Shown piece after piece: positions 16,581-50,698 of a stretch of DNA of 64,000 nucleotides. Source of the stretch: Clostridia bacterium (GTDB lineage: Bacteria > Bacillota > Clostridia > Christensenellales > Aristaeellaceae); the NCBI GenBank assembly GCA_017395685.1, contig JAFQOD010000073.1, positions 5,341 through 69,340 of the forward strand. Reading direction: 5' to 3'. Every line of letters starts with the position of its first letter. Within the stretch, counting starts at the first letter, position 1. The position numbers and the translations under genes are program-made. The notes under the pieces were generated by a model. It searched no databases, had not been told where the DNA came from, and saw only the letters and a list, made by a program, of their open reading frames with translations.

Positions 16581-16585
16581 GATGC

Positions 16586-16614: not shown

Positions 16615-16624
16615 GAGGGAAAAG

Positions 16625-16668
16625 AAGAATAAAGCTGAAGGGCAGATTTGCCCCTCAGCTTAAAATCT
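16625..16668 (-). terminator. rho-independent terminator of upstream minus-strand gene
   Basis: Minus strand AAGCTGAGGGGCAAATCTGCCCTTCAGCTTTATTCTTCTTTT. Confidence 0.6.
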
Positions 16669-16690
16669 TCCTTGGTTTTCTGAAAGCTGT

Positions 16691-28338: not shown

Positions 28339-28342
28339 GGGT

Positions 28343-28885: not shown

Positions 28886-29002
28886 CAATAAACCCTCCTG
28901 AAAATCATACATATGGGTAAGGTAGCACAGCCAAAGAAAAAATGCAAGGATGCCCTGGGACAAGAAAATTAGAAAAAATCAGAAAAGACCTGTGCCAGAT
29001 TA

Positions 29003-29031
29003 TTGACAAGGATTGATAATCCTATTATAAT
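29003..29031 (+). promoter_or_regulatory. consensus sigma70 promoter upstream of LacI-family regulator / sugar locus
   Basis: TTGACA, 17-nt spacer, TATAAT in an AT-rich 200-bp intergenic region. Confidence 0.5.
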
Positions 29032-29037
29032 GTAAAT

Positions 29038-29051
29038 AGAAACCGGTTACT
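29038..29051. promoter_or_regulatory. candidate LacI-family operator (imperfect palindrome)
   Basis: AGAAACC|GGTTACT, one mismatch, centred about 15 nt downstream of the -10 hexamer. Confidence 0.3.
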
Positions 29052-29186
29052 CAAACCAGAAAACACATGGATATAGACAATTGTTATGATGAAAGCCTTT
29101 CTTTCCTTAAAAAGCTTTTGAATAACAAAGGAATTATTTCATTTCATCCGTCGCCTTGATCGAGGCAGCTGAAAAGGATGTGGGAT

Positions 29187-30188
29187 ATGAATTACAGCAT
29201 TTCCGATGTGGCGCGACGTGCAGGGGTTTCCACCGCCACGGTGTCCCGGGTGATGAATAATAAAACCAACGGCGTCAGCAGCAGCACCCGGGAGCGGGTA
29301 CTGGCGATCATGGAGGAAATGAATTACCGTCCCAGCCAGCTGGCCAGAAGCATTGCGCTGAATCATTCCAATATTATCGGCGTGATCATTCCGGATGTAT
29401 CCAATCTGTTTTATCCCCAGATGCTGCGGGGAATCGATGATTATCTGAACACCAGGGGCTATTCCATGATGCTGTTCAATTCCGATTCCGATCCGGAGAG
29501 GGAAAAGAAACAGCTGCTTTCCATGGTGGATAACCGGGTGGACGGGGTGATTCTCTGCTCCGGCGTCAGCAATGAAGCCTTTCTGAAGGAATACCGCACC
29601 TACGGCATGCCCCTGGCCCTGATCGGCCGTACCTTTGACAGCGCCTATGCCGATTGCAGCATTATCGGCGATAATGAGCAGGGCATGTATGATTCTGCCA
29701 GCCTGATGCTCAGCCACGGGCATAAGCGCATCCTGTATCTGGATGGCACGGCGGGGGCGGCGGGCCCTATTTACCGGCTGCGTGGATATCGCCACGCATT
29801 GCAGGATGGGGGCGTAACCCCGGATGAAGGGCTGATCCTGCGGGGGGAATTTTCCATTCAGTTTGGCTACGATATGGTGCTGAGCCTGCTGGATGAGGGC
29901 AAGGAATTTACGGCTATCGTATCGGGCAGCGATCTGGTGGCCATCGGGGCCATCAAGGCCCTGCGCAGCCGGGGCATCCGGGTGCCGGAGGATATTGAGG
30001 TGATGGGCTTTGATAATATCGAGCTTTCTGAGATTTTCGAGCCCAAACTATCCACTGTTTCCAAACCCCATTACGAAATTGCATCCCAGGCGGCAAAAAT
30101 GCTGATTTCAACCATTGAAAATGAGGAATTGCCCATCCGCCGCATGACGGTCGCATCCACGCTGATTCTGCGGGATACCACCCGCTGA
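29187..30188 (+). CDS. LacI-family transcriptional regulator
   Basis: HTH MNYSISDVARRAGVSTATVSRVMN followed by a periplasmic-binding-like sugar-binding domain. Start 29187 is preferred over 29178 on RBS spacing. Confidence 0.85.
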   Translation: MNYSISDVARRAGVSTATVSRVMNNKTNGVSSSTRERVLAIMEEMNYRPSQLARSIALNHSNIIGVIIPDVSNLFYPQMLRGIDDYLNTRGYSMMLFNSDSDPEREKKQLLSMVDNRVDGVILCSGVSNEAFLKEYRTYGMPLALIGRTFDSAYADCSIIGDNEQGMYDSASLMLSHGHKRILYLDGTAGAAGPIYRLRGYRHALQDGGVTPDEGLILRGEFSIQFGYDMVLSLLDEGKEFTAIVSGSDLVAIGAIKALRSRGIRVPEDIEVMGFDNIELSEIFEPKLSTVSKPHYEIASQAAKMLISTIENEELPIRRMTVASTLILRDTTR

Positions 30189-30203
30189 TTAATAAATAAG
30201 GAG

Positions 30204-31139
30204 ATGGAGCCGGTGATTGGTACTGTGAATACCCGGAAACCCAAATCAAAATCCCTCCTCAGACGGGTGTGGGATTATCGCGTCATTTATTTGATGCTGC
30301 TGCCTACGGTGGCCTATTTCATTCTGTTCAAGTGCAGGGCGGTAGCCGGAATGACGCTGGCATTCTATGATTACAAGCCCCGCGGCTCCAATGTGTGGGT
30401 GGGCCTGAAATACTTCCAGCAGCTTTTTTCTTCCCCCACCTTTGGAACGATCATTCTCAATACCATCAAGATTAGCCTGCTGCGCATGATCCTCAACTGG
30501 ATTTTCCCTGTGATGTTTGCCATCATGCAGCATCAGGTGCGCAAGGGCCCCTTCCGCAAGAGCGTGCAGGTAATTTCTTACCTGCCCCACTTCCTCAGCT
30601 GGATTGTTATCTTCGGTATCTGGCGGGGCGCACTGGAATACGGCGGGCTGCTCAACAATATCTATGATCTGTTCGGCGTGGAATACAAGAATCTTCTGCT
30701 GCGCAGCGATACCATTGTGGGTGTAATCGGCCTGAGCTCCCTGTGGCGGGGCATCGGCTGGGATTCCATCATCTATCTGGCCGCCATTCTGGCCATTGAT
30801 ACCACCCAGTTTGACGCCGCTACTGTGGACGGCGCATCCAGGCTGCAGGTGATCCGTCATATCATCCTGCCCTCTCTGGTGCCCACCATGGCTACCATCC
30901 TCATTCTCAACTGCGGCTCCATTCTGGATGCGGGCGTGGATCAGATCCTGGCCTTCCAGAATTCCGCTGTGCAGAATTACATCGAAGTACTGGATACCTA
31001 TGTATATCGCGTCGGCGTGGTGCAGGGCAACTATTCCTTCTCCACGGCGGCCGGCCTGTTCAAGAGTGTTGTGGGCCTGATCTTTGTTACCGCTGCCCGC
31101 TGGGGATCCGGCAAGCTGGATAGCGGCAGCGCCGTTTGA
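30204..31139 (+). CDS. sugar ABC transporter permease (LplB/YtcP-like)
   Basis: BPD_transp_1 with about 6 TM helices, LplB-like. Alternative GTG start at 30213 has better spacing to the AAGGAG RBS. Confidence 0.8.
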   Translation: MEPVIGTVNTRKPKSKSLLRRVWDYRVIYLMLLPTVAYFILFKCRAVAGMTLAFYDYKPRGSNVWVGLKYFQQLFSSPTFGTIILNTIKISLLRMILNWIFPVMFAIMQHQVRKGPFRKSVQVISYLPHFLSWIVIFGIWRGALEYGGLLNNIYDLFGVEYKNLLLRSDTIVGVIGLSSLWRGIGWDSIIYLAAILAIDTTQFDAATVDGASRLQVIRHIILPSLVPTMATILILNCGSILDAGVDQILAFQNSAVQNYIEVLDTYVYRVGVVQGNYSFSTAAGLFKSVVGLIFVTAARWGSGKLDSGSAV

Positions 31140-31154
31140 TAGGAGGGAAGAAGT

Positions 31155-32075
31155 ATGGAAAAGAATGCTGTATCCAAACGTATTCCCCGCAGGAGCAGGC
31201 TGAACAGGCTTAGCTTCGGCATGATAATGGTTCATGTGTTCATGGTGTTTCTCTCGCTGGTGATTATGGTGCCCATCCTGAATCTGGTGGCCAAATCCTT
31301 CAGCTCGCCCCAGTCCGTGGCCCATATGAGCGGCTTTGCCATCTGGCCCAAGGAATTTTCCTTCGTGCATTATCAGGTGGTGCTTTCCTCCTCCAGTATC
31401 TGGACGGCGCTGAAAAACTCCCTGATCATTACCGTCGGCGGCACCGGGCTGAGCGTGCTGCTCACCTGCGCTTCCGCCTATGCCCTCACCCGCCCCGGTT
31501 TGCCGGGTAAAAAGCTGCTGATGTTCTTCTTCATTGCCATGATGGTGCTTTCCGCCCCCATCGTGCAGTGGTACATGGTCATGAAGGATTACAGGCTGCT
31601 CAATAACCGGTGGAGCATGATTCTCTACGGCTGCGTGGGCGTTTACAACATGATTCTGCTGATGCGCTTCTTTGAAGATACCCCGCCCTCCATTCTGGAG
31701 GCCGCCCGTGTGGACGGCGCCGGGGACTGGACGCTGCTGTTCCGGATTTTCCTGCCCCTGAACAAGGTGCCCATCATCACCATCATGCTGTTCTATGTGG
31801 TGCCCAAGTGGAATGAATATTTCGCTTCCGGCGTATTCCTTACAGAGCAGAATATGCGGGTGCTGCAGGTCTATCTGAGAGAATTCGTGGTCAACAACAG
31901 CACGGCGGAAATGGGCAATGACAACCTTTCCCAGTATGCCATGTTCCGCGATCTGAATTTGACCGCCCTGCAGAATGCCACCATTTTCATCTCCATCGTG
32001 CCCCTTCTGTGCCTGTATCCCACCATCCTCAAATACTTCACTTCCGGCGTGCTGGCCGGCGGCGTGAAGGAATAA
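31155..32075 (+). CDS. carbohydrate ABC transporter permease (LplC/YteP-like)
   Basis: RBS GGAGGGA; 6 TM helices; EAA-like loop EAARVDGAGDWTLLFRIFLP. Confidence 0.85.
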   Translation: MEKNAVSKRIPRRSRLNRLSFGMIMVHVFMVFLSLVIMVPILNLVAKSFSSPQSVAHMSGFAIWPKEFSFVHYQVVLSSSSIWTALKNSLIITVGGTGLSVLLTCASAYALTRPGLPGKKLLMFFFIAMMVLSAPIVQWYMVMKDYRLLNNRWSMILYGCVGVYNMILLMRFFEDTPPSILEAARVDGAGDWTLLFRIFLPLNKVPIITIMLFYVVPKWNEYFASGVFLTEQNMRVLQVYLREFVVNNSTAEMGNDNLSQYAMFRDLNLTALQNATIFISIVPLLCLYPTILKYFTSGVLAGGVKE

Positions 32076-32196
32076 TTCCATTCATGTTCAGTCCCGCGTG
32101 ACGGCGGGGATCAGGGTATTTTCCGCGTGCCCTGCCTCTCGCTGCACAGGATGCGGTTTCATTCAGCGGAAGAATAATTGAACAGGAGGTTACCCC

Positions 32197-33654
32197 ATGA
32201 AGAAACTTTTGGCTATCCTGATGGTTCTCACTCTGGCGCTGGGCCTTGTTGGCACCGCTGCCGCCGATGAAGTGGTCACCCTGAAGATCCTGGCCCGTAC
32301 CAGCGATCTGACCGCCAATCAGCCCGGTATCGATGCGCTGAATGAAAAGCTGGAAAAGGCTATCGGCGTGCGTCTGGAATGGCACAACCAGGCTTCCTCC
32401 GGCTATCCGGATTTCGTTAACAACATGCTGCAGACCTGGGAACCCGAAGATGTGTATGATCTGATTTATGTGCAGAGCACTTCCATCAATCCCATGTATC
32501 TGGGCAAGGATCTGGAAACCCTGGTGGATATGACCGAACTGGTTGAAAATTCCACCTATCTGAAGCCCGCCATGGAAAAGGATGCCATCTTTGCTGCGCA
32601 GTTCGCTGCCTGCCCCTACCTGCTGTGGCCCTCTGATGTGAATCAGGTGCTGCAGTTCCGTACCGACGCTCTGGAAGCCTGCCCCTCCTGGGAAGCTTTC
32701 CAGCAGAAGCCTGATCAGGCTGCCTACACCCAGCTGCTCAAGGAACTGAAGGCCCAGGGTTATGAAGCTGCTTTCACCACCCAGGCTTCCATCGATTACC
32801 TGGTCAAGACCGGCGTTGATTCCGGCTTCGGCATCACCAACACCTGGCTGAAGAATGAAGACGGCTCCTACACCTACTGCCGCGTCAGCGAAAACTTCCT
32901 CAAGGAACTGCAGTGGTATCGTCAGCTGTATGTGGATGGCGTTCTGTCCAAGAACTGGGCCACTGACAACTGGGAATCCATGGAAAACTCCCTGTACACC
33001 GGCGTTGTGGCTGGTATCGCCATGAAGGGCGGCGCCTACACCGTGTACTATGATAACAACACTGTCACCAACTACGGCGAAGGCGCTCACCTGACCATCC
33101 TGCCTCCCATGGTTGGCGAAAACGGCGAACAGTGCTATGCCATCACCTCCCAGAAGTTTGACCGCGGCTGGTGCATTTCCTCCTCTTCCGCCAATGTGGA
33201 AAAGGCTTTCGAAGTGCTGGATTGGATGATGAGCGATGAAGGCCGTATGTTCGATCTGTTCGGCGTAGAAGGCACCGACTACACCGTCAATGAAGACGGC
33301 ACCCTGAACCTGCTGTGCTCCTCCGACGCCACCAGCATCTACCGCATCTTTGACGCTGACGTGTTCGGCGATATCGATGTGCGCAAGGTTGCCACCACCG
33401 GCGCCAAGTATTGGCCCGATGCTTCCTTCGCTTCTGCTGAAATGGTTGCCAAGTACGGCAAGGCCGATAACGATTTCGTGATCCCCGATGAACACGTAAT
33501 CAACTGGACTGCCTGCGAATCCCTGTGGAAGGAATTTGCCACCCAGTACATCCTGGGCGAAAAGACCGATGCCGATTGGGCCACCTTCGTGGAAACCTGG
33601 CATAACTACGGCGGCGAAGCTGTGGAAGAATACGCTGCTGAAGTGATCGAATAA
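32197..33654 (+). CDS. extracellular solute-binding protein (LplA-like sugar ABC substrate-binding protein)
   Basis: Signal peptide MKKLLAILMVLTLALGLVGTAAA; 485 aa SBP_bac_1-like. Confidence 0.85.
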   Translation: MKKLLAILMVLTLALGLVGTAAADEVVTLKILARTSDLTANQPGIDALNEKLEKAIGVRLEWHNQASSGYPDFVNNMLQTWEPEDVYDLIYVQSTSINPMYLGKDLETLVDMTELVENSTYLKPAMEKDAIFAAQFAACPYLLWPSDVNQVLQFRTDALEACPSWEAFQQKPDQAAYTQLLKELKAQGYEAAFTTQASIDYLVKTGVDSGFGITNTWLKNEDGSYTYCRVSENFLKELQWYRQLYVDGVLSKNWATDNWESMENSLYTGVVAGIAMKGGAYTVYYDNNTVTNYGEGAHLTILPPMVGENGEQCYAITSQKFDRGWCISSSSANVEKAFEVLDWMMSDEGRMFDLFGVEGTDYTVNEDGTLNLLCSSDATSIYRIFDADVFGDIDVRKVATTGAKYWPDASFASAEMVAKYGKADNDFVIPDEHVINWTACESLWKEFATQYILGEKTDADWATFVETWHNYGGEAVEEYAAEVIE

Positions 33655-33690
33655 TTCCCAATCGCAAATTGATGTAAAACCATGCTTCCT

Positions 33691-33728
33691 GTTCCGGAGC
33701 GGGGGCTCCCCGCTCCGGAACTTTTCTT
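33691..33728 (+). terminator. rho-independent terminator after transporter genes
   Basis: GTTCCGGAGCGGGGGCTCCCCGCTCCGGAAC followed by TTTTCTT. Confidence 0.7.
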
Positions 33729-33738
33729 AACAGCCTGT

Positions 33739-33760
33739 GGAAAAGCATCCCTGCTTTTCC
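33739..33760. promoter_or_regulatory. perfect 9-4-9 inverted repeat (candidate operator or 5'-UTR hairpin) upstream of the HAD-ARH operon
   Basis: GGAAAAGCA-TCCC-TGCTTTTCC, 29 nt upstream of the ATG at 33789. Confidence 0.35.
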
Positions 33761-33788
33761 CATCCCTTTCTTTTGCAGAGGTGGCGTA

Positions 33789-34565
33789 ATGAAGCCAACC
33801 GATTTTTCATCCGTCCGGCTGATTGCCATGGATCTGGATGGAACGCTTCTGAACAAGGAAAAGACCATTTCTCCCCGTACCCTTCAGGCATTGGAAGAAT
33901 GCCGGAGGAGGGGGATCAAACTGGCCTTTGTGACGGGCCGCAGCCGGAAGGCGGCCCGGCAGTATGAGGAAATGCTCCGGCCGGAGGGCGCTGTGTTTTC
34001 CTATGGTGCTCAAATCATGCTCCAGGGCGAAACCATCGCCAGGCGGCATATGTCTCCCCAGGTGGCCGGCAGGGTGCTGGCGGGGGCAAAGGCGGCCGCC
34101 AAGATACGCTATCAATTAAAAGACGGCCCTTATTTTTCTTCTGTGCCCATGGAGGGATGCCTTCCCATGGAGGAGGATGCCCCTCTATTGCAGCCCGTTG
34201 AGCATATTGCCCTGTGGGATTTTCCGGAAAATGCGGCCCGTACCCTGGCAAAAAAATGCGGCTGCGCTCTCACCCAGGCGGTGGGGGACCGGTGGTGCAA
34301 TTTTTCCGCCAGGGGAACTGGAAAGGGCCCTGGTATGGGGCGATTGATGAATGCCCTGGGCCTTGAAAAGGGCCAGGCGCTGGCATTCGGGGATGAAAGC
34401 TGCGATGTGGAATTTTTCCGCATCTGCGGCATTGGCGTCGCCATGGAAAACGGTGATGCTTTCACCCGTGCTCATGCCGATTATCAGACCGAGAATAATG
34501 ATTGCGACGGTATAGCGATATTCCTGGAAAAATATCTGCTTTCCATGCCATCCAATATGTTATAA
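33789..34565 (+). CDS. HAD-IIB Cof-type sugar phosphatase
   Basis: Motif I IAMDLDGTLL, motif II VTGR, and C-terminal GDESCDVEFFRICGIGVAMENG (motifs III/IV). Confidence 0.8.
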   Translation: MKPTDFSSVRLIAMDLDGTLLNKEKTISPRTLQALEECRRRGIKLAFVTGRSRKAARQYEEMLRPEGAVFSYGAQIMLQGETIARRHMSPQVAGRVLAGAKAAAKIRYQLKDGPYFSSVPMEGCLPMEEDAPLLQPVEHIALWDFPENAARTLAKKCGCALTQAVGDRWCNFSARGTGKGPGMGRLMNALGLEKGQALAFGDESCDVEFFRICGIGVAMENGDAFTRAHADYQTENNDCDGIAIFLEKYLLSMPSNML

Positions 34566-34603
34566 AATTCAAAACGATATACAATGAATGGAGGTAAACC
34601 CAT

Positions 34604-35593
34604 ATGATTACCCGAGAAGATCTGCGCGCCAATCCTGAACTGCTTGCCGATAAGACCCGGGGCGCCCTGTGCGGCCTTGCCATCGGCGATTCCTTCGGCG
34701 ATGCTGCCCGCAAGCCTGATTATCAGCGGGATTACGGCATTACCACCGATTTCCACCGGGGCGACGCCTGGTCCACCGATGATACGGAATTTGCCCTGCT
34801 GGTAGCGGAAACCATCATTCAGGCCGGCGGCGATTTCACCTCTGAAGATGTGGAAAAAATGTGGAAAAAGCACGTTGTGGTGCAGGATGAACTGCGCCGT
34901 GGCGGCGTGAGCGAAATGGATGCGGCTGCCAATCTGCGCAAGGGCCTGCATGCCCCTATTTCCGGCATGTTCGGCACCCATAACCACAGTGACGGCGCTG
35001 CCATGCGCTGCGGCCCCATCGGCATTTATTGCGCCGGTGATGTGGAAAAGGCCAAGGAACTGTGCCGCATTGACGCTGAAATCAGCCATTGCCGGGACGG
35101 CGTCTGGGGCGCCCAGATGGTAGCGGTTGCCGTGGCCCTGGCCATGGTGGACGCCCCCTGGGAAGTGATCTTTGAGGAAGTGCTCAAGTGCGCCCCCGAA
35201 GAGTCCTGGCTGTATGACCGGATGAAGGCCGCCTATAAAGTGGTGGAAGAAAACAATTATGACGTGGCCGATACCTGGATGAAGCTGCATGATCTTTTGT
35301 TCTGCTCCTATCGTGCCGCCACCCCCGAGGCCATGCCCGAAGCCTTCGGCTGCCTGATGCTCAAGCATGATACCTTCAAATCCGGCGTGCTGCTGGCCTC
35401 CAATTTCGGCCGGGATGCAGATACCATCGGCGCGGTGGTGGGCTGCATTCTGGGCGCCCGTTACGGCGCCAAGGCCATTCCGCCCTACTGGCTGGAGCAT
35501 ACCCGCTATCCCTCCGGCACCTGCCTGCAGTTCACCAAGGGTGTGGATCTGTTCGAAAAGGCGGAGCGGCTGGCTGAATTGATCGCCAAATAA
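34604..35593 (+). CDS. ADP-ribosylglycohydrolase (ARH) family protein
   Basis: ARH fold motifs: GALCGLAIGDSFGDA, the STDDTEF Asp pair, and C-terminal GRDADTIGAVVGCILGARYG (second metal site). Confidence 0.8.
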   Translation: MITREDLRANPELLADKTRGALCGLAIGDSFGDAARKPDYQRDYGITTDFHRGDAWSTDDTEFALLVAETIIQAGGDFTSEDVEKMWKKHVVVQDELRRGGVSEMDAAANLRKGLHAPISGMFGTHNHSDGAAMRCGPIGIYCAGDVEKAKELCRIDAEISHCRDGVWGAQMVAVAVALAMVDAPWEVIFEEVLKCAPEESWLYDRMKAAYKVVEENNYDVADTWMKLHDLLFCSYRAATPEAMPEAFGCLMLKHDTFKSGVLLASNFGRDADTIGAVVGCILGARYGAKAIPPYWLEHTRYPSGTCLQFTKGVDLFEKAERLAELIAK

Positions 35594-36495
35594 TGAAATT
35601 AACCTTTCTGGGCACGGCAGCAGCGGAAATGTATCCAGCTCCCTTCTGCCAGTGCCCTCATTGCACTCAGGCCCGGAAAGAGGGCGGCAAAAACATCCGC
35701 GCCAACAGCGCCGCCCTGATCGATGATGATATTCTGCTGGATATGAATGTGACCAGTCACTATGTGGCGGCCCGGCTGGGGATTTCCCTGGCCGGGGTGC
35801 GCCATCTGCTGGTCACCCATCCCCACACCGATCATTTTGAGCCCGATCGCCTGCGCTGGCGCAGAACCACCGCCAAAGGCGTGCCCCCCTTTGATCCGGC
35901 CGCCGGCCTCTGGTCCGCCCGATTTACGGAAACACCGGAAATGACCATTCACGGCAATGCCTATGTCCGGGAGCGGCTGGATGGGGTGATCCTTCCTGAG
36001 GTAAAGGCCACGGCGGAATACGATTTCCATTTCGAACTGATCGAAGAAGGAAAATGGCAGGATTGCGGAGATTTTGCATTCCTGCCCCTGCGCTCCAATC
36101 ACGGAAAGCAGGAAGGCATGGCCCATACCTACCTGATCCGCAGGGGAGGGAAAACCCTCTTTTACTGCACGGACTGCGGCGGCTTTGATCCGGATCAGCT
36201 GGATATCCTGGCCCGGCAGAAGATCGATCTGGTGGTGATGGAGGGCACCTTCGGCCTGGGCGCATATGCCAATGAGGATGCGCCCCTGCCCACCGGAAAA
36301 GGGCATATGAATCTGAAAAAGAATGAGGTGCTGCGGGCCTTCCTGCTGGATCATGGCTGCATCACCCCGGATACCCCCTGCATTCTTACCCATCTGTGTC
36401 CCCATTATACGCCGCCCCATGCGCAATTTGAAAAGATTGCCCGTCAATCAGGGTTCGGGGTTGCCTATGACGGCCTGGAAATCATGATTGAATAA
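35593..36495 (+). CDS. MBL-fold metallo-hydrolase, PhnP-like (CxCxxC structural zinc motif)
   Basis: N-terminal LTFLGTAAAEMYPAPFCQCPHC (CxCxxC as in PhnP cyclic-phosphate phosphodiesterases); HxHxDH as VTHPHTDHF. Confidence 0.65.
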   Translation: MKLTFLGTAAAEMYPAPFCQCPHCTQARKEGGKNIRANSAALIDDDILLDMNVTSHYVAARLGISLAGVRHLLVTHPHTDHFEPDRLRWRRTTAKGVPPFDPAAGLWSARFTETPEMTIHGNAYVRERLDGVILPEVKATAEYDFHFELIEEGKWQDCGDFAFLPLRSNHGKQEGMAHTYLIRRGGKTLFYCTDCGGFDPDQLDILARQKIDLVVMEGTFGLGAYANEDAPLPTGKGHMNLKKNEVLRAFLLDHGCITPDTPCILTHLCPHYTPPHAQFEKIARQSGFGVAYDGLEIMIE

Positions 36496-36515
36496 GTATA
36501 CGGAGGAAGTACAGT

Positions 36516-38651: not shown

Positions 38652-38715
38652 ACGGGAATTCCCTGCCGCCTGCGGGCGGCCAGGCCATAAACAGAGATAA
38701 AATACATAGGTTGAG

Positions 38716-40857: not shown

Positions 40858-40863
40858 GCTGAT

Positions 40864-42222
40864 ATGAAGACTACCATTCTCTCTCCCTGTGGTATTCTGG
40901 GCTATGGTTTTCCCGAAAGTTCCTTCCGGGCGGCCATTGCCCAGCGGCCGGACGCCATCGTGGTGGATGCCGGCAGCACCGACGCAGGCCCTCATAAGCT
41001 GGGCGCAGGAACGGCCATTGTCAGCCGGATGGCCTGCAAAAAGGATCTGAAGCTGCTGATGGAAGGGGCCAAGGCCCTTTCCATCCCCCTGGTGATCGGC
41101 TCTGCCGGCGGCTCCGGCGCCCGGACCCATGTGAACTGGACGCTGAGCATCATTGAAGAATTGGCCCGGGAAATGGATTGGCAGGCCTCTCTGGCGGTGA
41201 TCTGGGCGGATATTCCCAAGGATCATATCCTGGCCCAGCAGGAAAAGGGCGGGGTAACCAAAATGAGCCCCAATGTGCCCGATATCACCAAAGAAAGCCT
41301 GGACGCCACCAACGGCGTAGTGGCCCAGATGGGCGCAGAGCCCATCATCAAGGCCCTGGAGGCCGGCGCCCAGATCATCGTCTGCGGCCGTGCCTACGAT
41401 CCTGCGCCCTTTGCCGCCGTTGCCATGCACAGGGGCCATGACGCCGCCCTGGGCTTCCATCTGGGCAAGATCCTGGAATGCGGCACCCTCTGCGCCGAGC
41501 CCGGAACAGCCAAGGACTGCATGCTGGGCATGCTGGATGATACCGGCTTTGAAGTATGGCCGGCTGATCCCAAGCGCAAGTGCACCCCCGTTACCGTGGC
41601 CGCCCACACCTTCTATGAAAAGGATCATCCCTACATTCTGAAGGGCCCCGGCATGGTGCTCAATCTGGAAGGCTGCATCTTTACCGACTGCGGCGAAGGC
41701 CGTGTGCGGGTGGAAGGCAGCAGGCTGGAATGGATCCCCTATACCATCAAGCTGGAGGGGGCCAGGCTCAGGGCATACCGCACCTTCGTATTGGCCGGGA
41801 TCCGGGATCCCCTGCTTATCAGCCGTCTGGATGAAGTGGAGGCGGAAGTGCGCCGCCAGGTGAAGGAATATTATTCGGAAATCCCGGAAGATCAGTATCA
41901 GATCAATTTCTATCATTACGGTATTGACGGCGTAATGGGCGAATTGGAGCCCGATCGCACGCTGCCCCATGAAGTGGGATTGATGTTTGAGGTGCTGGCG
42001 GGCACCCAGGAAATGGCCAACGCCATCTGCGCCACCGTCCGTTCCAGCTATCTGCATTACGGCTATCCCGGGCGCAAATCCACGGCGGGCAATCTGGCCT
42101 TCCCCTTCGCCCCCAGCGATGTGCAGTTTGGGGCGGTATATATGTTCTCCGTATATCATCTGATGCAGGTGGCAGATCCCTGCGCTCTGTTCCCCATTGA
42201 ATACAGGGAGGTGGGCGTATGA
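40864..42222 (+). CDS. DUF1446 (acyclic terpene utilization AtuA-like) family protein
   Basis: 452 aa; N-terminal ILSPCGILGYGFP and overall architecture resemble AtuA-like proteins. Called from recollection of the family, not from a search. Confidence 0.6.
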   Translation: MKTTILSPCGILGYGFPESSFRAAIAQRPDAIVVDAGSTDAGPHKLGAGTAIVSRMACKKDLKLLMEGAKALSIPLVIGSAGGSGARTHVNWTLSIIEELAREMDWQASLAVIWADIPKDHILAQQEKGGVTKMSPNVPDITKESLDATNGVVAQMGAEPIIKALEAGAQIIVCGRAYDPAPFAAVAMHRGHDAALGFHLGKILECGTLCAEPGTAKDCMLGMLDDTGFEVWPADPKRKCTPVTVAAHTFYEKDHPYILKGPGMVLNLEGCIFTDCGEGRVRVEGSRLEWIPYTIKLEGARLRAYRTFVLAGIRDPLLISRLDEVEAEVRRQVKEYYSEIPEDQYQINFYHYGIDGVMGELEPDRTLPHEVGLMFEVLAGTQEMANAICATVRSSYLHYGYPGRKSTAGNLAFPFAPSDVQFGAVYMFSVYHLMQVADPCALFPIEYREVGV

Positions 42223-42530
42223 CCATTTATGAAGCAGCCCATGTGGTGCGTTCCAAGAACAGCGGCCCCTTTGCCGTGACGCTGGATATCCTGTTTGACC
42301 GAAGCGAGGAATATTTCCGCCTGAAAAATTCCGGGATGATCACCCCGGAGTTTGTTGCCGGCCTGTACCGGATTTCCCCGGAAGATATTACCGATTTTGC
42401 CTGGTTTGATGCGGGGCTTGGGGTCAAGATCACGTATCTGAGAAAGGTTGCCTCCGGTACGGTGGGCGATCGGGATGTATATGGCGCTCAGCAGCATGCG
42501 CCCCTGCTCATGCTGGAAATGCCTGAATAA
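42219..42530 (+). CDS. DUF4387-like small protein, translationally coupled to the DUF1446 gene
   Basis: 103 aa; its start overlaps the upstream stop (ATGA); RBS GAGGTGG. DUF1446/DUF4387 commonly occur as pairs. Confidence 0.55.
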   Translation: MTIYEAAHVVRSKNSGPFAVTLDILFDRSEEYFRLKNSGMITPEFVAGLYRISPEDITDFAWFDAGLGVKITYLRKVASGTVGDRDVYGAQQHAPLLMLEMPE

Positions 42531-42543
42531 GGAGGCGGAACCT

Positions 42544-43515
42544 GTGCGCAGAGGAATTGCCTGTCTCATGATTTTGCTGCTGCTGTGCCCGGCAATTCCG
42601 GGGTATTGTGCGGAGGATGATGAAATGACGATCATGGAAAAAATCCTGTCCGTTAAAAAGACGATGCCGGATAAATCCCTGTTTGATAATCTGCCCATTC
42701 TTTCCAAAAAGGAAATGGGAATGCCCATCGGGGCGATCACCTACCAATGGAAGGAAGGCCGCTTTACGGCCGATGTGCACTTTGGGGCCAATATGCCCGT
42801 AACACCCCTTCGGGATATCCACGGCCGCTTTAAGGCAATCAGCGGCGAAGCGGAATACGGCTATCTTCTGTATCTGCCGGAAAATTTCGATCCCGCCCGG
42901 GAATATCCCACCATTCTTTTCCTCCACGGCATCGGGGAAAGGGGAAGCAATCCTGCGGATCTGATCCCCTACGGGCCCTTCCAGTATATTCTGGCGGGCA
43001 ATGAACTGGATATGATCATCATTGCCCCCCAGGTGGAAAAGGAAAATCACTGGGTGGAGGATCCCAATGAAGGGGAAGTGGATACCCAGATGAAGCGGCT
43101 TTCCCTCTTCCTGGATCAGATGAAGCAAAAATATCCCATCGATGAAAGCCGCATTTATCTCACCGGCCTTTCCATGGGCGGCCGGGGCACCTATAAGCTG
43201 GCCTGCTATCTGCCCGATACCTTTGCCGCGGTGGCGGCCTGCTGCGGCCGTGCCGGTGTGCGGGAGGAGCCCTATCATTTCTTCTATGATCTTAGCAAAA
43301 TGGCGGATCAGCCCGTCTGGCTGATCCATGGCCTGGCGGATACCACGGTGGACGCCAATCATTCCCTGGCGGCCATGGACAGGCTGCTTTCGCTGAATGA
43401 GGAGGGCAATTTCCGCCTGACCTTGTATCCCGGGGTAGGCCATGCCAGCTATGATATCATCTATCGGGATCCTGCCCTGTATACATGGCTCAGCCAATGG
43501 CGCCGGGGCGAATAA
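42544..43515 (+). CDS. secreted alpha/beta-hydrolase esterase (carboxylesterase / PHB-depolymerase-like)
   Basis: GTG start with RBS AAGGAGG; signal peptide MRRGIACLMILLLLCPAIPGYCA; GLSMGG nucleophile elbow; ILFLHGIGERG. Confidence 0.7.
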   Translation: MRRGIACLMILLLLCPAIPGYCAEDDEMTIMEKILSVKKTMPDKSLFDNLPILSKKEMGMPIGAITYQWKEGRFTADVHFGANMPVTPLRDIHGRFKAISGEAEYGYLLYLPENFDPAREYPTILFLHGIGERGSNPADLIPYGPFQYILAGNELDMIIIAPQVEKENHWVEDPNEGEVDTQMKRLSLFLDQMKQKYPIDESRIYLTGLSMGGRGTYKLACYLPDTFAAVAACCGRAGVREEPYHFFYDLSKMADQPVWLIHGLADTTVDANHSLAAMDRLLSLNEEGNFRLTLYPGVGHASYDIIYRDPALYTWLSQWRRGE

Positions 43516-43531
43516 CATGAGGTGATGCAAT

Positions 43532-44413
43532 ATGAAAATGCTTGTCTTTGGATCACTGAATATTGATCATACCTATCGGATGCCCCATCTGGTGCGGGCA
43601 GGGGAAACCCTGGCCTCAGCCAGCTATCAGCGCAATGCGGGGGGCAAGGGCCTCAATCAGACCATTGCCCTGGCCCGGGCAGGGCAGCCGGTTTCCATGG
43701 CCGGGGCCATCGGCGAGGATGGATTATTCCTCAAGGCCTATCTGGATTCCTTTGGGGTGGATACCAGCCTGATCCGCATCTGCGAGGAGGCCACCGGCCA
43801 TGCCATCATCCAGCTGGATGCGGAGGGGCAGAATGCCATCATGCTGTACGGCGGCGCCAATCAGCAGATGACGAAGGAAAGCGTATCCGATGCGCTCAGC
43901 GGATTCGGCCCGGGGGATTATCTGCTTTTGCAGAATGAAATCAACTGCCTGGATGAAATCGTCCGCCTGGCGAAGGAGAAGGGAATGAAGGTCATCCTCA
44001 ATCCCAGCCCCATGAGCGACAGCCTTCCTGCGCTGCTGCCTCAGGTGGATTGGCTGATTCTCAATGAAGTGGAAGGGGCGGATCTGACCGGCACATCCGA
44101 TCCGGATGCCATTGTGGATGCCCTGCTGGCCCGTTATCCCGCCTGCCGCATCGTGCTGACCCTGGGCACCCAGGGATCCATGTATGCAGACGGCGAAAAC
44201 CGGTATTTCCAGCCGGTGATCAAGGTGGAAGCGGTGGATACCACGGCGGCCGGCGATACCTTTACGGGCTTCTTTTTCCAGAGCGTGCTCAGCGGCAGGG
44301 ATATTCCCTATGCCCTCCGTCTGGCGGCCAATGCATCCGCCATTGCGGTAACGCGCCCTGGCGCCGGTGGCTCCATTCCTTCTCTGGATGAAGTGCTTGA
44401 AAAAATGAAATAA
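43532..44413 (+). CDS. rbsK: ribokinase
   Basis: PfkB fold with NxxG and the ribokinase signature AVDTTAAGDTFTG near the C-terminus; 293 aa. Confidence 0.85.
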   Translation: MKMLVFGSLNIDHTYRMPHLVRAGETLASASYQRNAGGKGLNQTIALARAGQPVSMAGAIGEDGLFLKAYLDSFGVDTSLIRICEEATGHAIIQLDAEGQNAIMLYGGANQQMTKESVSDALSGFGPGDYLLLQNEINCLDEIVRLAKEKGMKVILNPSPMSDSLPALLPQVDWLILNEVEGADLTGTSDPDAIVDALLARYPACRIVLTLGTQGSMYADGENRYFQPVIKVEAVDTTAAGDTFTGFFFQSVLSGRDIPYALRLAANASAIAVTRPGAGGSIPSLDEVLEKMK

Positions 44414-44422
44414 AGGAAAAAT

Positions 44423-44459
44423 GCGGGCTGCCCGTTTGTTTGGCAAGCCCGCTTTTTTA
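44423..44459 (+). terminator. candidate rho-independent terminator after ribokinase (possibly partial read-through)
   Basis: GCGGGCTGCCCGTTTGTTTGGCAAGCCCGC followed by TTTTTTATT. Confidence 0.5.
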
Positions 44460-44473
44460 TTGGGGAGAATTAG

Positions 44474-45169
44474 ATGATTGAAAATCAGTGGCTGAATATT
44501 CCTGCATCAAGGATGCTCTATATGGTTCGCCACAGGATCATGGAGGGCGATTGCCAGGCGGAGCATGGCCCGGTGGTGCTGCATCTGGATGCCTATCAGA
44601 TCCAGAAATACCCCGTCACCAATGCCCAGTATATGCGGTTTGTGGAGCAGACCGGGTATTGCCCGGCGGATGGAAGCGGCTTTCTGCGGCATCTGCAGGG
44701 CGGATTGAATGGGGAGAATGCCGATCTGCCCGTCACCTGGATCAATCAGGGGGATGCTGCGGCCTATGCGGCCTGGATCGGGGGCCGCCTGCCTACCCAG
44801 GCCCAGTGGCAGCATGCAGCCGAAGGCCCTGACGGGCTGATCTGGCCCTGGGGCAATCAATTTGACGCCTCCTGCGCCAATGGGGACAGCCCGTCCCTGA
44901 CGCCTGTGGACCGTTACCCCCAGGGGGCCAGCCCCTTTGGGGTGATGGATCTGTGCGGCAATGCATGGGAATGGACGGATGAGATCATGGATGACGGCAT
45001 GCATCGCTTTGCTCTGCTGCGGGGCGGCTGCCATTATCGGGGGGAGCATTTCTGGCATATGGAGGGCGGCTGTCACAGCAATCAGAATCATGAAAAAATG
45101 CCGCTGCTGGGCGGGGGCCTGGATCGGTCCGCTACTGTATCCTTTCGCTGTGTCAGGGAGGTGAAATAA
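44474..45169 (+). CDS. formylglycine-generating-enzyme (FGE/SUMF1) family protein
   Basis: FGE-sulfatase domain motifs: YPVTNAQYMRFVEQTGY, LPTQAQWQHAAEG, GNAWEWT, RGGCHY. The exact start within 44474-44530 is uncertain. Confidence 0.7.
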   Translation: MIENQWLNIPASRMLYMVRHRIMEGDCQAEHGPVVLHLDAYQIQKYPVTNAQYMRFVEQTGYCPADGSGFLRHLQGGLNGENADLPVTWINQGDAAAYAAWIGGRLPTQAQWQHAAEGPDGLIWPWGNQFDASCANGDSPSLTPVDRYPQGASPFGVMDLCGNAWEWTDEIMDDGMHRFALLRGGCHYRGEHFWHMEGGCHSNQNHEKMPLLGGGLDRSATVSFRCVREVK

Positions 45170-45171
45170 GC

Positions 45172-46902
45172 ATGGAAATGATCCGGGCAGGCGCATTGCA
45201 CATGGAAATTCAGGATGGCATGCTTTCTGCTTATCTGGATGATCTGCCCTTATTTCAGGGCCCTGAGGAATTATTCGCCCTGTGGCTGGAGGGAGTGGGG
45301 AATTATTCCCCCGGAGATATGGAAATGACCGCAGATCGCGAAGCAGGGCCGGGGTGGGAGCTGCTTACTGCCGCCTTCCGGAAGGAAGGGGCACTGCTTC
45401 GCATGGATTTTTTGAGCCGGGAGGAAGAAATCCGGGTATCTGCATCCATTACGGTGGATTGGCCGGAGGGCATTCCCGGGCGTGCATCCCTTCGCCTGCC
45501 CTGGCTGGCCGCTTTCCGGATGGAAAATGGGGCGGAGCGCTTTCCGGCAAAGATCGGCCGGAAGCGCAGCGGCGCCACTGCCCTGCAGATGAAAAAGCTG
45601 TGCCCGCCGCCCTATTGCCTGGAAGGGCCGGACGGCAGGGGCATCGGGGCGTATTTCCCGCTGGATGCGGCCAATATTTCCTGGGATCCCTGCCGGAATT
45701 TTGAATTATGTGATATCGCCTCCAGAAAGGATCTGGAAAATCATTGCCTGCATCTGCGGCTGTCCCCAACCCCAACCCTGGCTGTGGATATCCGCCTGTG
45801 GCCCCTTTCGGACGGCTGGCGGCAGTGCTTCCGCCGTTTCCGGGAAATCATCCGGGCACGGGTGCCCCAGGATCAGTATGCCAGGGAGGATCTCAGATGG
45901 ATCCGGGATACCTGCCTGTGCCATTTCACTTATGCATTCAGCCGGGAATTTTTTGATTATGAAAGTGGCAAACCGGATCTGGATAAGCTGCTGCAGGAGG
46001 GAGAGGCCTTCGGCGGATATGACTGCATTCTCTTGTGGCATGAATATCCCCGCCTGGGGCTGGACAGCCGAACTCAATGGGATTTTTATGATGATTATCC
46101 CGGCGGGCGGGAAGGGCTGAAGCAATTGATTGCCCGGGCCCATGAAAAGGGGGTCAGGGTGATGCTGCCCTTCAAGCCCTGGGACAGCACCCCCGATGAA
46201 AACAGCCATCAGACCACCGCCCGTATTGCCGCACTGATCCGGGAACTGGATGTGGACGGTATCTTTTACGATACCATGAATACCGTGCCGGAATCCTTCC
46301 GTGCGGCCATTGACGCCGCCCGGCCCGGGGTGGTATTCGTCAGTGAATCAGAGCCCCATGAAACACGGGCCCTGGAGATGATCACCTGCTCCTGGAATCA
46401 GTACCGCACCGATTGGTCCATGCCGGAAAGCAATCTGATCCGTTTTCTGTTTCCGCTGCATACCCGGCATGCCATTTCCCGGTGGCATATGGGGGCGCAG
46501 AAGGATATTGCCATCCAGCGTGCCGTATTCAACGGGGAAGGAATGGTCATCTGGCAGGATATTTTCGGGGCATGGCTGCCCTATTCCCCGGCCCAGAAGC
46601 AGGAAATTGCCCGGTGGAAGCAGCTGCGGAAGGAATTTTTACCCCTGCTGGAAACGATGGATTGCGTTCCGCTGCTGACCACGCTGGCCCCGGATGTGCA
46701 TGCCAATGGCTTTTTCTGCGGGGATAAGGCCATTATCACTTTGTGGCTGGATGGGGATGAGCCCTGGGAGGGAGAGTTGATCAGCCGCCTGCCCTATGCC
46801 TCCGCCTGCGATCGCTGGGGCGGCCAGCCCATGAAGATGGAGGATGGGGTGCTGTCCGGCCGGCTGGAGCCGGGAAGGGCCGCCTTTGTGGTGCTGGAAT
46901 AA
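45172..46902 (+). CDS. hypothetical protein, possible TIM-barrel glycoside-hydrolase-like
   Basis: 576 aa; RBS GGAGGTG. The central segment LWHEYPRLGLDS...GGREGLKQLIARAHEKGVRVMLPFKPWD...DGIFYDTMN resembles a (beta/alpha)8 hydrolase core; no confident family. Confidence 0.45.
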   Translation: MEMIRAGALHMEIQDGMLSAYLDDLPLFQGPEELFALWLEGVGNYSPGDMEMTADREAGPGWELLTAAFRKEGALLRMDFLSREEEIRVSASITVDWPEGIPGRASLRLPWLAAFRMENGAERFPAKIGRKRSGATALQMKKLCPPPYCLEGPDGRGIGAYFPLDAANISWDPCRNFELCDIASRKDLENHCLHLRLSPTPTLAVDIRLWPLSDGWRQCFRRFREIIRARVPQDQYAREDLRWIRDTCLCHFTYAFSREFFDYESGKPDLDKLLQEGEAFGGYDCILLWHEYPRLGLDSRTQWDFYDDYPGGREGLKQLIARAHEKGVRVMLPFKPWDSTPDENSHQTTARIAALIRELDVDGIFYDTMNTVPESFRAAIDAARPGVVFVSESEPHETRALEMITCSWNQYRTDWSMPESNLIRFLFPLHTRHAISRWHMGAQKDIAIQRAVFNGEGMVIWQDIFGAWLPYSPAQKQEIARWKQLRKEFLPLLETMDCVPLLTTLAPDVHANGFFCGDKAIITLWLDGDEPWEGELISRLPYASACDRWGGQPMKMEDGVLSGRLEPGRAAFVVLE

Positions 46903-46999
46903 ATGGCTGCGGTTATGACATTGCCGGATGAATAAAAATGTGATAAGGTAAGGGCGGAAATAAGCGCATCGTTTGATTTTTATAGCGGAGGGATTCATC

Positions 47000-47824
47000 A
47001 TGGAAAAGATTCTGATCGGTTATCAGCTGTATTCTGCCCGGGAAGAAATGGCCAATGATTTCAGGGGCACGCTGGAAAAGGTGAAGGCCCTTGGCTATGA
47101 TGCGGTGGAATTTGCCGGCCTGTTCGGCAGGGCGCCCGGGGAAATCCGTAAAATGCTGGATGAAGTGGGGCTGACCGCCATCTCTGCCCATGTGCCCTAT
47201 GATGTGATCAGGGCGGATATGGATCAGGCCATCCGGGATTATCAGCAGATCGGCTGCCGGTATATCACCGTTCCCTTCCTGGGGGATCAGGACCGGCCCG
47301 GCGCCCCCGGCTTTGCCAAAGTGATTGCCCTCATCCGTCAGTTCGGGGAAAAATGCAAAAAGGCGGGCATCACCCTGCTCTATCACAATCATGATTTTGA
47401 ATTTGTGCAGGTTTCCGGCATGTACGGCCTGGATTTTTTGTATGATGCGGTGCCGGCGGAATATCTGGAAACGGAAATCGATACCTGCTGGGTGCGCTAT
47501 GCCGGGGAGGATCCCGCCGCCTATATCCGCAGGTATGCTTCCCGCTGCCCCATCGTGCATCTCAAGGATTATGTGGGCGTCAAGGGCGGCGCACAGCCCT
47601 ATGCCCTCATCAATGCGGATGGCAGCGATGACGGAAAGAATGAAAATGTGGCCTTCCAGTTCATGCCCGTGGGATACGGATGCCAGGATGTGGCCGCCAT
47701 CATCCGGGCGGGGCTGGAAAGCGGCGCCCATACCTTCATTGTGGAGCAGGATCAGTGGTATGACCGCCATCCCCTGGAGGCGGCCAGGATGAGCCTGGAA
47801 ACGGTGAAGAGACTGCTGAAATAA
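47000..47824 (+). CDS. sugar phosphate isomerase/epimerase (xylose-isomerase-like TIM barrel)
   Basis: Start MEKILIGYQLYS with RBS GGAGGGA; AP_endonuc_2/XylA-like motifs (AVEFAG, LLYHNHDFEF, HLKD). Confidence 0.8.
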   Translation: MEKILIGYQLYSAREEMANDFRGTLEKVKALGYDAVEFAGLFGRAPGEIRKMLDEVGLTAISAHVPYDVIRADMDQAIRDYQQIGCRYITVPFLGDQDRPGAPGFAKVIALIRQFGEKCKKAGITLLYHNHDFEFVQVSGMYGLDFLYDAVPAEYLETEIDTCWVRYAGEDPAAYIRRYASRCPIVHLKDYVGVKGGAQPYALINADGSDDGKNENVAFQFMPVGYGCQDVAAIIRAGLESGAHTFIVEQDQWYDRHPLEAARMSLETVKRLLK

Positions 47825-47837
47825 AAATGGTGAAAAT

Positions 47838-47868
47838 GCCGGGTCTCCTGCGGGGGGCCCGGTTTTTT
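47838..47868 (+). terminator. rho-independent terminator at end of the long sugar operon
   Basis: GCCGGGTCTCCTGCGGGGGGCCCGG followed by TTTTTT. Confidence 0.6.
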
Positions 47869-47914
47869 GATGGAAGTTTTGCTGCCAGCTTCCACCTTTT
47901 GCGGCCTGGGCTTA

Positions 47915-47943
47915 TTGCTTTTATCATGCCGGAATGATATAAT
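47915..47943 (+). promoter_or_regulatory. candidate sigma70 promoter for the SPFH-TIR gene block in an AT-rich intergenic island
   Basis: TTGCTT, 17-nt spacer, TATAAT. The 150-bp region 47871-48024 is markedly AT-rich against a GC-rich background. Confidence 0.4.
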
Positions 47944-48024
47944 AAATTGATATGTCGTATTTTGTCATAATAATGTATGATTTTTTTAAACTGTCTGTTG
48001 AACGATTGAAAGCGGAGTGAAAAC

Positions 48025-50505: not shown

Positions 50506-50698
50506 TCGAAAATTAATCAGGCAAGAAAAGGGCCGGCGGTCATCTGATCGATCCGCCTTTTTCTTGCTTTTGCATGGCGGGGCGGATGATGCCGCTGCCT
50601 GGAATCGGCCAGAAAAAAAGATCGTATGCGGGTATCACCCGGATCAAAGAAATGGATGAAATGACGGCTCAGGTACGCTGAGGAATGGGAGATTTGTG

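Follow-up and report, generated by a model that had tools for sequence, protein, structure and literature searches.

The closest described relatives of the system reported here are the ribose utilization (rus) loci of Bacteroidetes. These loci combine one or more ribokinase genes with a variable set of hydrolases, which in some species include ADP-ribosylglycohydrolases (ARHs), esterases and nucleoside hydrolases; LacI-type regulators also occur, and the ARH members are themselves uncharacterized (Glowacki et al., bioRxiv 10.1101/574913). In this study, we analyzed a 64,000-nucleotide (nt) stretch of a contig from a gut Clostridia bacterium (JAFQOD010000073.1), hereafter the window, which carries a locus with ARH family proteins, an ATP-binding cassette (ABC) importer and a ribokinase-like kinase. 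The rus loci and the window locus have in common the idea of freeing ribose from diverse conjugates and the linkage of ribokinase to hydrolases that include ARHs, and the connection to Bacteroides that a preliminary description of the window had drawn is real. We regard the locus as a probable ribose-conjugate utilization locus whose new features, relative to rus, are ABC uptake, ARHs fused to carbohydrate-binding module (CBM)-like domains and a coupled CmlAB-type lyase. Whereas rus loci employ SusC/SusD outer membrane uptake and the RusT permease, the window encodes a Gram-positive CUT1 ABC importer and no SusC/SusD pair. The CmlAB-type lyase and the 700-residue ARH-CBM fusion, both present in the window locus, are not described in the text of the rus paper. 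Full-text literature searches found no description of a Firmicutes counterpart or of such a system, in agreement with the preliminary description, which had considered an ABC-based counterpart in Firmicutes uncharacterized; they also found no mention of DUF4387, of AtuA together with citramalate lyase, or of ARH together with Lachnospiraceae.

Two groups of known proteins are also relevant. What is known of ARH enzymes (PF03747), a family that includes ARH3, DraG and MJ1187, is almost entirely their removal of ADP-ribose marks. The ARH proteins of the window have the same all-helical fold and Asp-rich di-metal motifs, but their sequence identity to these enzymes is only ~15%, the window fusions add two β-sandwich domains apparently confined to the fusion family, and their context is catabolic rather than regulatory. 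A catabolic ARH system in hundreds of gut and soil species would add a second major role for the family, and would also give a function to the uncharacterized ARH genes of Bacteroides rus loci. The other group is represented by the two-subunit citramalate lyase CmlAB (PDB 9erq/9evf); the Cml enzyme of Raoultella planticola is reported to convert citramalate directly to pyruvate and acetate (bioRxiv 10.64898/2026.01.16.699985).

Gene families were assigned by Pfam and NCBIfam profile searches together with the listing of open reading frames (ORFs), and coordinates are positions within the window. The locus comprises 16 genes on the + strand at 29178-47824, with the positions and Pfam families that the preliminary description had given them. 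The regulator, importer, ARH, lyase and kinase genes are as follows.

29178-30188, + strand: LacI family repressor (Pfam LacI and Peripla_BP_1/3)
30204-31139, + strand: ABC permease 1, CUT1 type, LplB-like (BPD_transp_1)
31155-32075, + strand: ABC permease 2, LplC-like (BPD_transp_1)
32197-33654, + strand: large extracellular solute-binding protein (SBP) of 485 residues (SBP_bac_1)
34604-35593, + strand: small ARH family hydrolase of 329 residues, core (ADP_ribosyl_GH, E 8e-50)
36516-38651, + strand: ARH fusion 1 of 711 residues, an ARH domain with two β-sandwich domains (Pfam ARH match at residues 15-303, E 2e-54)
38725-40857, + strand: ARH fusion 2 of 710 residues (ARH, E 1e-55), ortholog of the single fusion in related loci
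40864-42222, + strand: CmlA-like lyase large subunit, AtuA/DUF1446 family, core (matched by PDB 9erq/9evf chain A)
42219-42530, + strand: CmlB-like lyase small subunit, DUF4387, core (matched by PDB 9erq chain B), with a 4-base overlap with the large subunit gene
43532-44413, + strand: ribokinase-like PfkB kinase (PfkB, E 4e-51)

The strongest evidence on what these genes do together comes from comparative genomics. An AtuA-only scan of metagenome contigs gave 80 loci at 58-76% identity, and genes were counted in the 19 of these that were at least 20 kb long (long loci). All 19 encode DUF4387 and both permeases; the binding protein and an ARH fusion were found in 18 each, a small ARH in 16 and a ribokinase in 11. 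HAD phosphatase (3), metallo-β-lactamase (MBL)-fold hydrolase (1) and window-type esterase (1) genes are rare in the same loci, and homologs of the remaining accessory genes of the window, which encode a formylglycine-generating enzyme (FGE)-like protein, a glycoside hydrolase (GH)-fold protein and a TIM barrel protein, do not occur in them. The gene-neighborhood analysis, a step that the preliminary description had proposed, reveals a conserved core of the importer, small ARH, ARH fusion, CmlAB-like lyase and often ribokinase. This core recurs in dozens of distant metagenomic loci and in one cultured Clostridium. Its genes are typically ordered as GntR/FCD regulator, AtuA, DUF4387, permease, permease, binding protein, ARH fusion, small ARH and ribokinase. 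The cultured organism, Clostridium sp. BSD9I1 (GCA_900185645.1), has on contig FYAM01000011.1 a compact operon of this kind (GntR/FCD-AtuA-DUF4387-permease-permease-SBP-ARH700-esterase-ARH328), in which the esterase gene lies between the two ARH genes and is divergent from that of the window; an esterase is usually absent from core loci.

The presence of the lyase pair with the transporter and ARHs in long loci indicates that the lyase is not a passenger; it is the most faithfully linked gene pair, and its tight coupling to the ARHs and transporter points to an organic-acid moiety in the substrate. A GntR/FCD regulator adjoins AtuA in 22 of 29 loci. Such regulators usually sense carboxylates, and their location beside AtuA would fit a carboxylate signal.

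The lyase genes had been left as unknowns (DUF1446 and DUF4387) in the preliminary description. Both products turned out to be close relatives of the solved CmlAB enzyme: for the AtuA protein, the match is to chain A of 9erq/9evf ("citramalate lyase subunit A (cmlA)"; E value 1.3e-138, 49% identity over 435 residues), and for the DUF4387 protein it is to chain B ("citramalate lyase subunit B (cmlB)"; E value 2.2e-30, 53% identity). The window pair and CmlAB have the same two-subunit architecture (AtuA family plus DUF4387), adjacent genes and similarity over the full length of both chains; the ARH-linked relatives differ in being located in a sugar-type import operon.

Another, independent scan followed the ARH fusion through one genome per species and found at least 577 stretches with relatives, of which the best 80 were used for neighborhood counts. 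The carriers include Lachnospiraceae, Oscillospiraceae, Paenibacillus, Cohnella, Lentibacillus and Treponema, the closest being uncultured metagenome-assembled genomes (MAGs) of Oscillospiraceae and Clostridia. Neighbors of the fusion in these 80 loci are ABC permeases (45), PfkB kinases (37), binding proteins (31) and LacI-PfkB fusion regulators (29), and more rarely nucleoside hydrolases (11), RbsA (7), RbsC (6) and small ARHs (7). The frequent proximity to ABC permeases (45/80) and PfkB kinases (37/80) bears out the earlier preference for import and dismantling of a ribose-containing compound over protein de-ADP-ribosylation.

Two other kinds of neighbors were observed in this set. In 5 of the 80 loci, among them locus L086 (12363-13742), a sulfatase gene is the immediate neighbor of the ARH fusion. 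In Oscillospiraceae bacterium PP1C4 (L089, 4175-12148), the fusion and an ABC importer follow genes for NanE, a ROK kinase and an RpiR regulator, i.e., sialic acid/N-acetylmannosamine-type genes in place of ribokinase, so that fusion family members may be specific for other sugars.

The three ARH proteins of the window score 170.5, 185.4 and 189.6 bits against PF03747 (cut-off 26.2) and have no signal peptides. Fusions 1 and 2 are paralogs with 62% identity. Fusion 2 is 64-72% identical to the fusion of the related loci L007-L010, and fusion 1 is a lineage-specific extra copy. In the AF2 model of fusion 1 (pLDDT 86), the N-terminal fold matches MJ1187, DraG and ARH3, and the C-terminal part resembles the CBM22 and CBM66 folds. 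Residues E30, D57-D59, D283 and D285 are invariant in 20 fusion sequences and align with the GDALGMPTE and GGDTDS motifs of MJ1187, and in the small ARH the metal motifs STDDT and DADT are invariant in 22 orthologs, those from lyase-type loci being 53-64% identical. A sequence search with a single fusion sequence gave no match among solved structures, and with a profile the sole match was MJ1187. When the last 347 residues of the fusion were searched against 1.8 billion representatives, 292 clusters matched, and nearly all full-length matches carry this module behind an N-terminus of ~360 residues, as in ARH fusions (the presence of ARH in these N-termini was not checked one by one). On this evidence, the module seems specific to the fusion family, and domain swaps offer no clue to the substrate. 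An additional fusion, 34% identical to the window copies, follows the lyase genes in L010, a close relative of the window locus (14823-16919).

The link to ribose is provided by the kinase. It is 33% identical to Escherichia coli RbsK and conserves all of N14, D16, G42, K43, N46, E143 and D255, the seven residues that contact ribose or serve in catalysis in the RbsK crystal structure. Of 42 kinases encoded beside ARH fusions, 33-35 retain these contacts, as do 17-18 of 18 kinase domains of LacI-PfkB regulators and 13/13 kinases of lyase-type loci. Ribose release by the locus is well supported by this retention of every RbsK ribose contact in the predicted sugar site. The LacI-ribokinase-like fusion regulators are proteins of ~635 residues whose kinase domain is complete and keeps all its contacts, found in 29 of the 80 fusion loci (e.g., L017, 2326-4248, - strand; L087, 3597-5498, - strand; L169, 7893-9809, + strand).

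The same residues bear on a proposal in which the substrate is derived from plant cell walls, namely branched or acidic furanosides such as the aceric acid and apiose side chains of rhamnogalacturonan II. The ARHs would then be furanosidases acting on non-ribose sugars, the esterase would deacetylate, and the lyase would cleave a tertiary-hydroxy sugar acid. Carriers of the fusion are indeed typical plant-glycan degraders (Lachnospiraceae, Oscillospiraceae, Paenibacillus, Cohnella and termite Treponema), one of the CBM-like domains resembles the fructofuranose-binding CBM66, a GH127 gene lies beside an ARH gene in L090, and aceric acid, like citramalate, has a carboxylate-bearing tertiary carbinol. 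However, no ribose contact of RbsK is lost in the linked kinases, RbsA/C and nucleoside hydrolases are found with the fusions in some loci, and pectin-related GH or polysaccharide lyase genes are absent from the window locus. We consider a plant-wall substrate highly unlikely.

The importer, called LplABC-like in the preliminary description, is of the CUT1/LplABC type, since it consists of two BPD_transp_1 permeases and a large SBP_bac_1 binding protein that is nearest to oligosaccharide binders. Orthologs of permease 1 in lyase-type loci are 41-52% identical to it. The nearest solved relatives of the binding protein are Smon0123, FusA and AlgQ1/2, whose ligands are di- to oligosaccharides, some of them acidic, which suggests a transported species larger than ribose. 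No ABC ATPase gene was found between 29003 and 47868; Firmicutes often use one shared MsmX-type ATPase. The signal peptide of the binding protein (MKKLLAILMVLTLALGLVGTAAA/DE, 32197-32280) lacks a lipobox Cys, which is unusual for a Gram-positive ABC binding protein. The best NCBIfam matches of the LacI protein are RbsR (234.7 bits, cut-off 382), CcpA, CytR and PurR, all below their cut-offs. The window locus thus resembles the E. coli rbs operon in having a repressor nearest to the RbsR type, but RbsD, RbsA, RbsC and RbsB are all missing from it and its importer is instead of the oligosaccharide type, so that free ribose is probably not what is transported.

In the general model that we propose, ribose is released from an imported substrate whose acid part is in turn split by the lyase; our confidence in this model is moderate and evenly balanced. 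The substrate would be an imported compound with one or more D-ribofuranose units on an organic hydroxy-acid, used by a catabolic, LacI-repressed locus. The secreted esterase may trim it outside the cell, and the CUT1/LplABC-type importer, with its binding protein of the oligosaccharide class, would take it up. In the cytoplasm, the small ARH and the ARH-CBM-like fusions, with their conserved metal sites, would hydrolyze bonds at ribose C1. The freed ribose would be converted to ribose 5-phosphate by the ribokinase, and the CmlAB-type lyase would split a 2-substituted-malate-type acid into a 2-oxo acid and acetate. The HAD, MBL, FGE-like/GH-fold and TIM barrel proteins probably widen the range of decorated substrates. 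Transcription would start at a consensus promoter, with LacI probably holding off expression from a palindrome downstream of it.

A 2-substituted malate in oligoribosyl-conjugated form would be the simplest substrate that calls on all core genes. A chemical precedent exists in ribocitrin, a tririboside of (S)-homocitric acid (PMC12381216). Nothing was found on ribocitrin degradation, although no search aimed at it was made. Cleavage of homocitrate by a CmlAB-type enzyme would be expected to yield acetate and 2-oxoglutarate. A narrower proposal, that the core is a dedicated pathway for oligoribosylated 2-alkylmalates (ribocitrin-like compounds with ribofuranose chains on homocitrate or citramalate), is tentative, and we think it unlikely to be correct in this specific form. 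If it were, the ARHs would be cytoplasmic O-ribofuranosidases, the lyase would cut the freed tertiary hydroxy-acid into a 2-oxo acid and acetate independently of coenzyme A, gut and soil would contain ribosylated organic acids as a widespread, overlooked class of nutrients, and the FGE-fold/GH-fold pair would be a second, new two-component glycosidase.

Several observations count against the ribosyl-acid model. CmlA is an outgroup to 72 sampled AtuA relatives (other AtuA subfamilies were not sampled), with 44-52% identity to them as against at least 52% within the ARH-linked clade. The lyase substrate may therefore differ from citramalate, as may details of the reaction; it may be another 2-substituted malate, such as homocitrate. 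The ribokinase is present in only 11 of the 19 long lyase-type loci. The kinase of the window scores 238.7 against TIGR02152, below the equivalog cut-off of 299.65; as its contacts are kept, we term it a ribokinase-like protein whose ribose site is intact. In the small ARH, the GDAxGxxxE motif is missing its canonical Glu, a position that is not conserved. ARH fusions form two clades. One is usual in lyase-type loci; the other, to which both window copies belong, is characteristic of Lachnospiraceae loci that have no lyase. This placement, together with a transporter and small ARH of the lyase type, suggests that the window locus is a hybrid with a lineage-specific duplication. To our knowledge, no abundant gut compound fits the description of ribosyl plus 2-alkylmalate, ribocitrin being a Streptomyces product. 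Finally, the case is computational throughout, and the proposed substrate is a prediction.

The lyase link gives a chemical clue to the nutrient, ribose plus a tertiary hydroxy-acid, and places a newly solved lyase family in a new physiological setting. Two unstudied enzyme families are brought to attention: the 700-residue ARH-CBM fusion, found in at least 577 species genomes, and a rare GH-fold protein that acts with, or is fused to, an FGE-fold domain. Since Clostridium sp. BSD9I1 is a cultured carrier, the system is directly testable.

The other six genes of the window locus are as follows.

33789-34565, + strand: Cof-type HAD-IIB phosphatase (Hydrolase_3, E 4e-35) with the DxD motif
35593-36495, + strand: MBL-fold hydrolase with a PhnP/PqqB-like N-terminus (Lactamase_B_2)
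42544-43515, + strand: secreted α/β-hydrolase esterase (Abhydrolase_2, Esterase and PHB-depolymerase family matches)
44474-45169, + strand: FGE-sulfatase-fold protein (Pfam E 4e-34; 118.9 bits, cut-off 23.3)
45172-46902, + strand: GH-fold protein of 576 residues from a rare, unnamed family (no Pfam match; fold from a model)
47000-47824, + strand: xylose isomerase-like TIM barrel protein (AP_endonuc_2, E 1e-18)

We rejected the idea that all 16 genes are conserved together: most of this gene set recurs only in the four closest MAGs. In L007-L010, gene order is shuffled and content is kept, with accessory genes varying. The HAD phosphatase also occurs in L007, L008 and L010, and the esterase, whose N-terminus (RRGIACLMILLLLCPAIPGYCA/EDDE) resembles a signal peptide, in L007-L010. 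The TIM barrel protein, which shows weak similarity to IolE (55 bits, cut-off 290), was found only in the window and is absent from all related loci examined. The HAD phosphatase, PhnP-like MBL, FGE/GH pair and TIM barrel are lineage-specific add-ons.

The MBL and HAD genes are central to an alternative in which the locus scavenges nucleotide-derived ribosyl compounds, i.e., ADP-ribose, NAD-derived compounds, poly- or oligo(ADP-ribose) or ribose cyclic phosphate. In this scheme, the MBL acts on a cyclic or diester phosphate, the HAD enzyme removes phosphate, the ARHs cut ribose-ribose or ribose-base bonds and the ribokinase salvages ribose. In its favor, ADP-ribose conjugates are the substrates of known ARHs, and ARH3 and DraG are among the fold matches; the HAD enzyme looks active; the LacI protein is nearest to RbsR, CytR and PurR; and nucleoside hydrolases occur in some fusion loci. 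The MBL, called PhnP-like in the preliminary description, shares with PhnP, the 5-phosphoribosyl 1,2-cyclic phosphate phosphodiesterase, the MBL fold, the HxHxDH motif and, at the N-terminus, CxCxxC. Its match to PhnP (TIGR03307) is confined to residues 1-102, however, with 50.4 bits against a cut-off of 272.25, and the typical PhnP belongs to a phn (carbon-phosphorus lyase) cluster, whereas the window locus has no phn genes. With this score and with MBL and HAD genes in 1/19 and 3/19 long loci, the argument for a cyclic phosphate or nucleotide substrate, made on the basis of PhnP, is weak. Both genes are also absent from Lachnospiraceae-type loci, the binding protein and permeases are of a type for neutral or acidic oligosaccharides rather than nucleoside or nucleotide importers, and a nucleotide substrate leaves no role for the tightly coupled CmlAB-like lyase or the CBM-like domains. 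We regard this alternative as unlikely.

The FGE-like and GH-fold genes form a conserved pair. The 576-residue protein had been described as unknown and TIM barrel-like; its confident AlphaFold model (pLDDT 92) predicts a glycoside hydrolase fold in which a (β/α)8 barrel is flanked by two β-sandwiches, one on either side. Searches against Pfam and NCBIfam gave no match to this protein, and the best PDB sequence had an E value of 0.0096 over ~40 residues. Its family contains 59 clusters among 5.8 billion proteins and carries no Pfam domain. A catalytic (β/α)8 barrel with flanking β-sandwich domains is also a feature of GH13 (clan GH-H). However, the protein has no detectable sequence membership in GH13, GH27 or GH36 (clans GH-H and GH-D), and, in contrast to these, its family is rare and is paired or fused with an FGE-fold domain. 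In other organisms, an FGE-sulfatase domain is fused to homologs of the 576-residue protein (P0144 and P0173-P0178), and the two genes are adjacent in four distant loci (L090, L092, L093 and the P0156 contig). These fusions and adjacencies suggest that the FGE-like gene of the window is the functional partner of the GH-fold gene, and the modeled fold makes the pair a candidate for a new two-component glycosidase family. The C-terminal region of the FGE-like protein, examined with regard to the catalytic cysteine pair of FGEs, reads RGGCHYRGEHFWHMEGGCH. The window locus contains no sulfatase gene as a client. The FGE/GH-fold pair often has a dedicated ABC transporter as well as a PfkB kinase that departs from RbsK in its sugar-site residues.

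This pair also enters into a different interpretation of the locus, as a mosaic of three modules under one regulator, each serving a different compound: the ARHs with ribokinase and importer, the CmlAB-like lyase, and the FGE-like/GH-fold pair with a kinase. In L093 and L092, the pair has an ABC transporter and a PfkB kinase to itself, and no ARH is present. Lachnospiraceae loci with ARH fusions lack the lyase, the transporter and small ARH of the window are of the lyase type and its fusions belong to the other clade, and accessory genes differ among close relatives. Against this stand the nearly constant association, in the sampled clade, of the lyase pair with this transporter and the ARHs (18-19 of the 19 long loci), which persists across 58-76% identity, and the compact operons that hold only a regulator, lyase, importer, two ARHs and kinase. 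A mosaic serving separate compounds is, in our judgment, improbable.

Transcription signals in the locus agree with those given in the preliminary description, as follows.

29003-29031, + strand: sigma-70-type promoter, TTGACA-17-TATAAT, with 12/12 consensus matches
29039-29050, no strand assigned: candidate LacI family operator GAAACCGGTTAC, an imperfect palindrome 8 bases past the -10 box
33691-33721, + strand: terminator-like hairpin after the binding protein gene, with a 14-pair stem (11 GC pairs) and a T-rich tail
47838-47863, + strand: terminator-like hairpin at the end of the operon, with an 11-pair stem (8 GC pairs) and a T tail

The promoter upstream of the LacI gene is the sole perfect one in the 20 kb at 28300-48200, and a TTGACA...-10 arrangement also precedes the LacI gene in the orthologous loci L007, L008 and L010. 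The palindrome is in the place described earlier, and its counterpart is conserved: in L007 and L008, the near-identical GAAAGCGGTTAAC directly follows the -10 box, at the position of GAAACCGGTTAC. This match in two orthologous loci is the best available support for the predicted operator. No second copy of GAAACCGGTTAC with up to two mismatches was found above the chance level in the locus, including the region in front of the HAD gene.

Both terminator-like hairpins are strong. The interval separating the first hairpin from the HAD gene has no detected promoter; the 14-kb block may therefore be read through from the upstream promoter, and the hairpin at 33691-33721 may be a partial terminator or an mRNA stabilizer. 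Another inverted repeat (GGAAAAGC-6 nt-GCTTTTCC, 33740-33761), with a T-rich tract after it, lies between this hairpin and the start codon of the HAD gene and may act as a site for a regulator or as a small attenuator. Start/stop overlaps are found at 35593 and 42219-42222, and the genes at 45169/45172 nearly abut. An Rfam scan of 28300-48300 (E ≤ 0.1) yielded no riboswitch or other RNA element. The window DNA matches metagenomic contigs from ENA and Logan assemblies.

Two genes for TIR domain proteins lie ~3 kb downstream of the locus, and TIR enzymes make ADP-ribose derivatives. Together with membership in the ARH family, this proximity could be taken to favor a regulatory or defensive function, in which ADP-ribose is removed from proteins or nucleic acids as by DraG, ARH1 or ARH3. 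The ARH genes share their operon with an ABC importer, kinase, lyase and esterase, though, and the fusion carries CBM-like domains. PADLOC gave no matches for the seven proteins submitted to it, which counts against a defense role. The TIR genes are located past the strong terminator and beside no other ARH locus, so that the adjacency looks coincidental. Such a function, already disfavored, is extremely improbable.

The TIR genes are tandem paralogs (50696-53494 and 53531-56356, + strand) whose products are 53% identical and have a TIR-RCC1-propeller organization; the first also has TPR. Upstream of them are a Band_7/SPFH gene (48025-49860) and an ORF for an unknown protein of 213 residues (49864-50505), and the TIR-RCC1 region is a possible defense island. 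Elsewhere in the window, a 719-residue FGGY family sugar kinase (12166-14325, - strand) has an unusually long N-terminal extension of ~170 residues ahead of its kinase domain.

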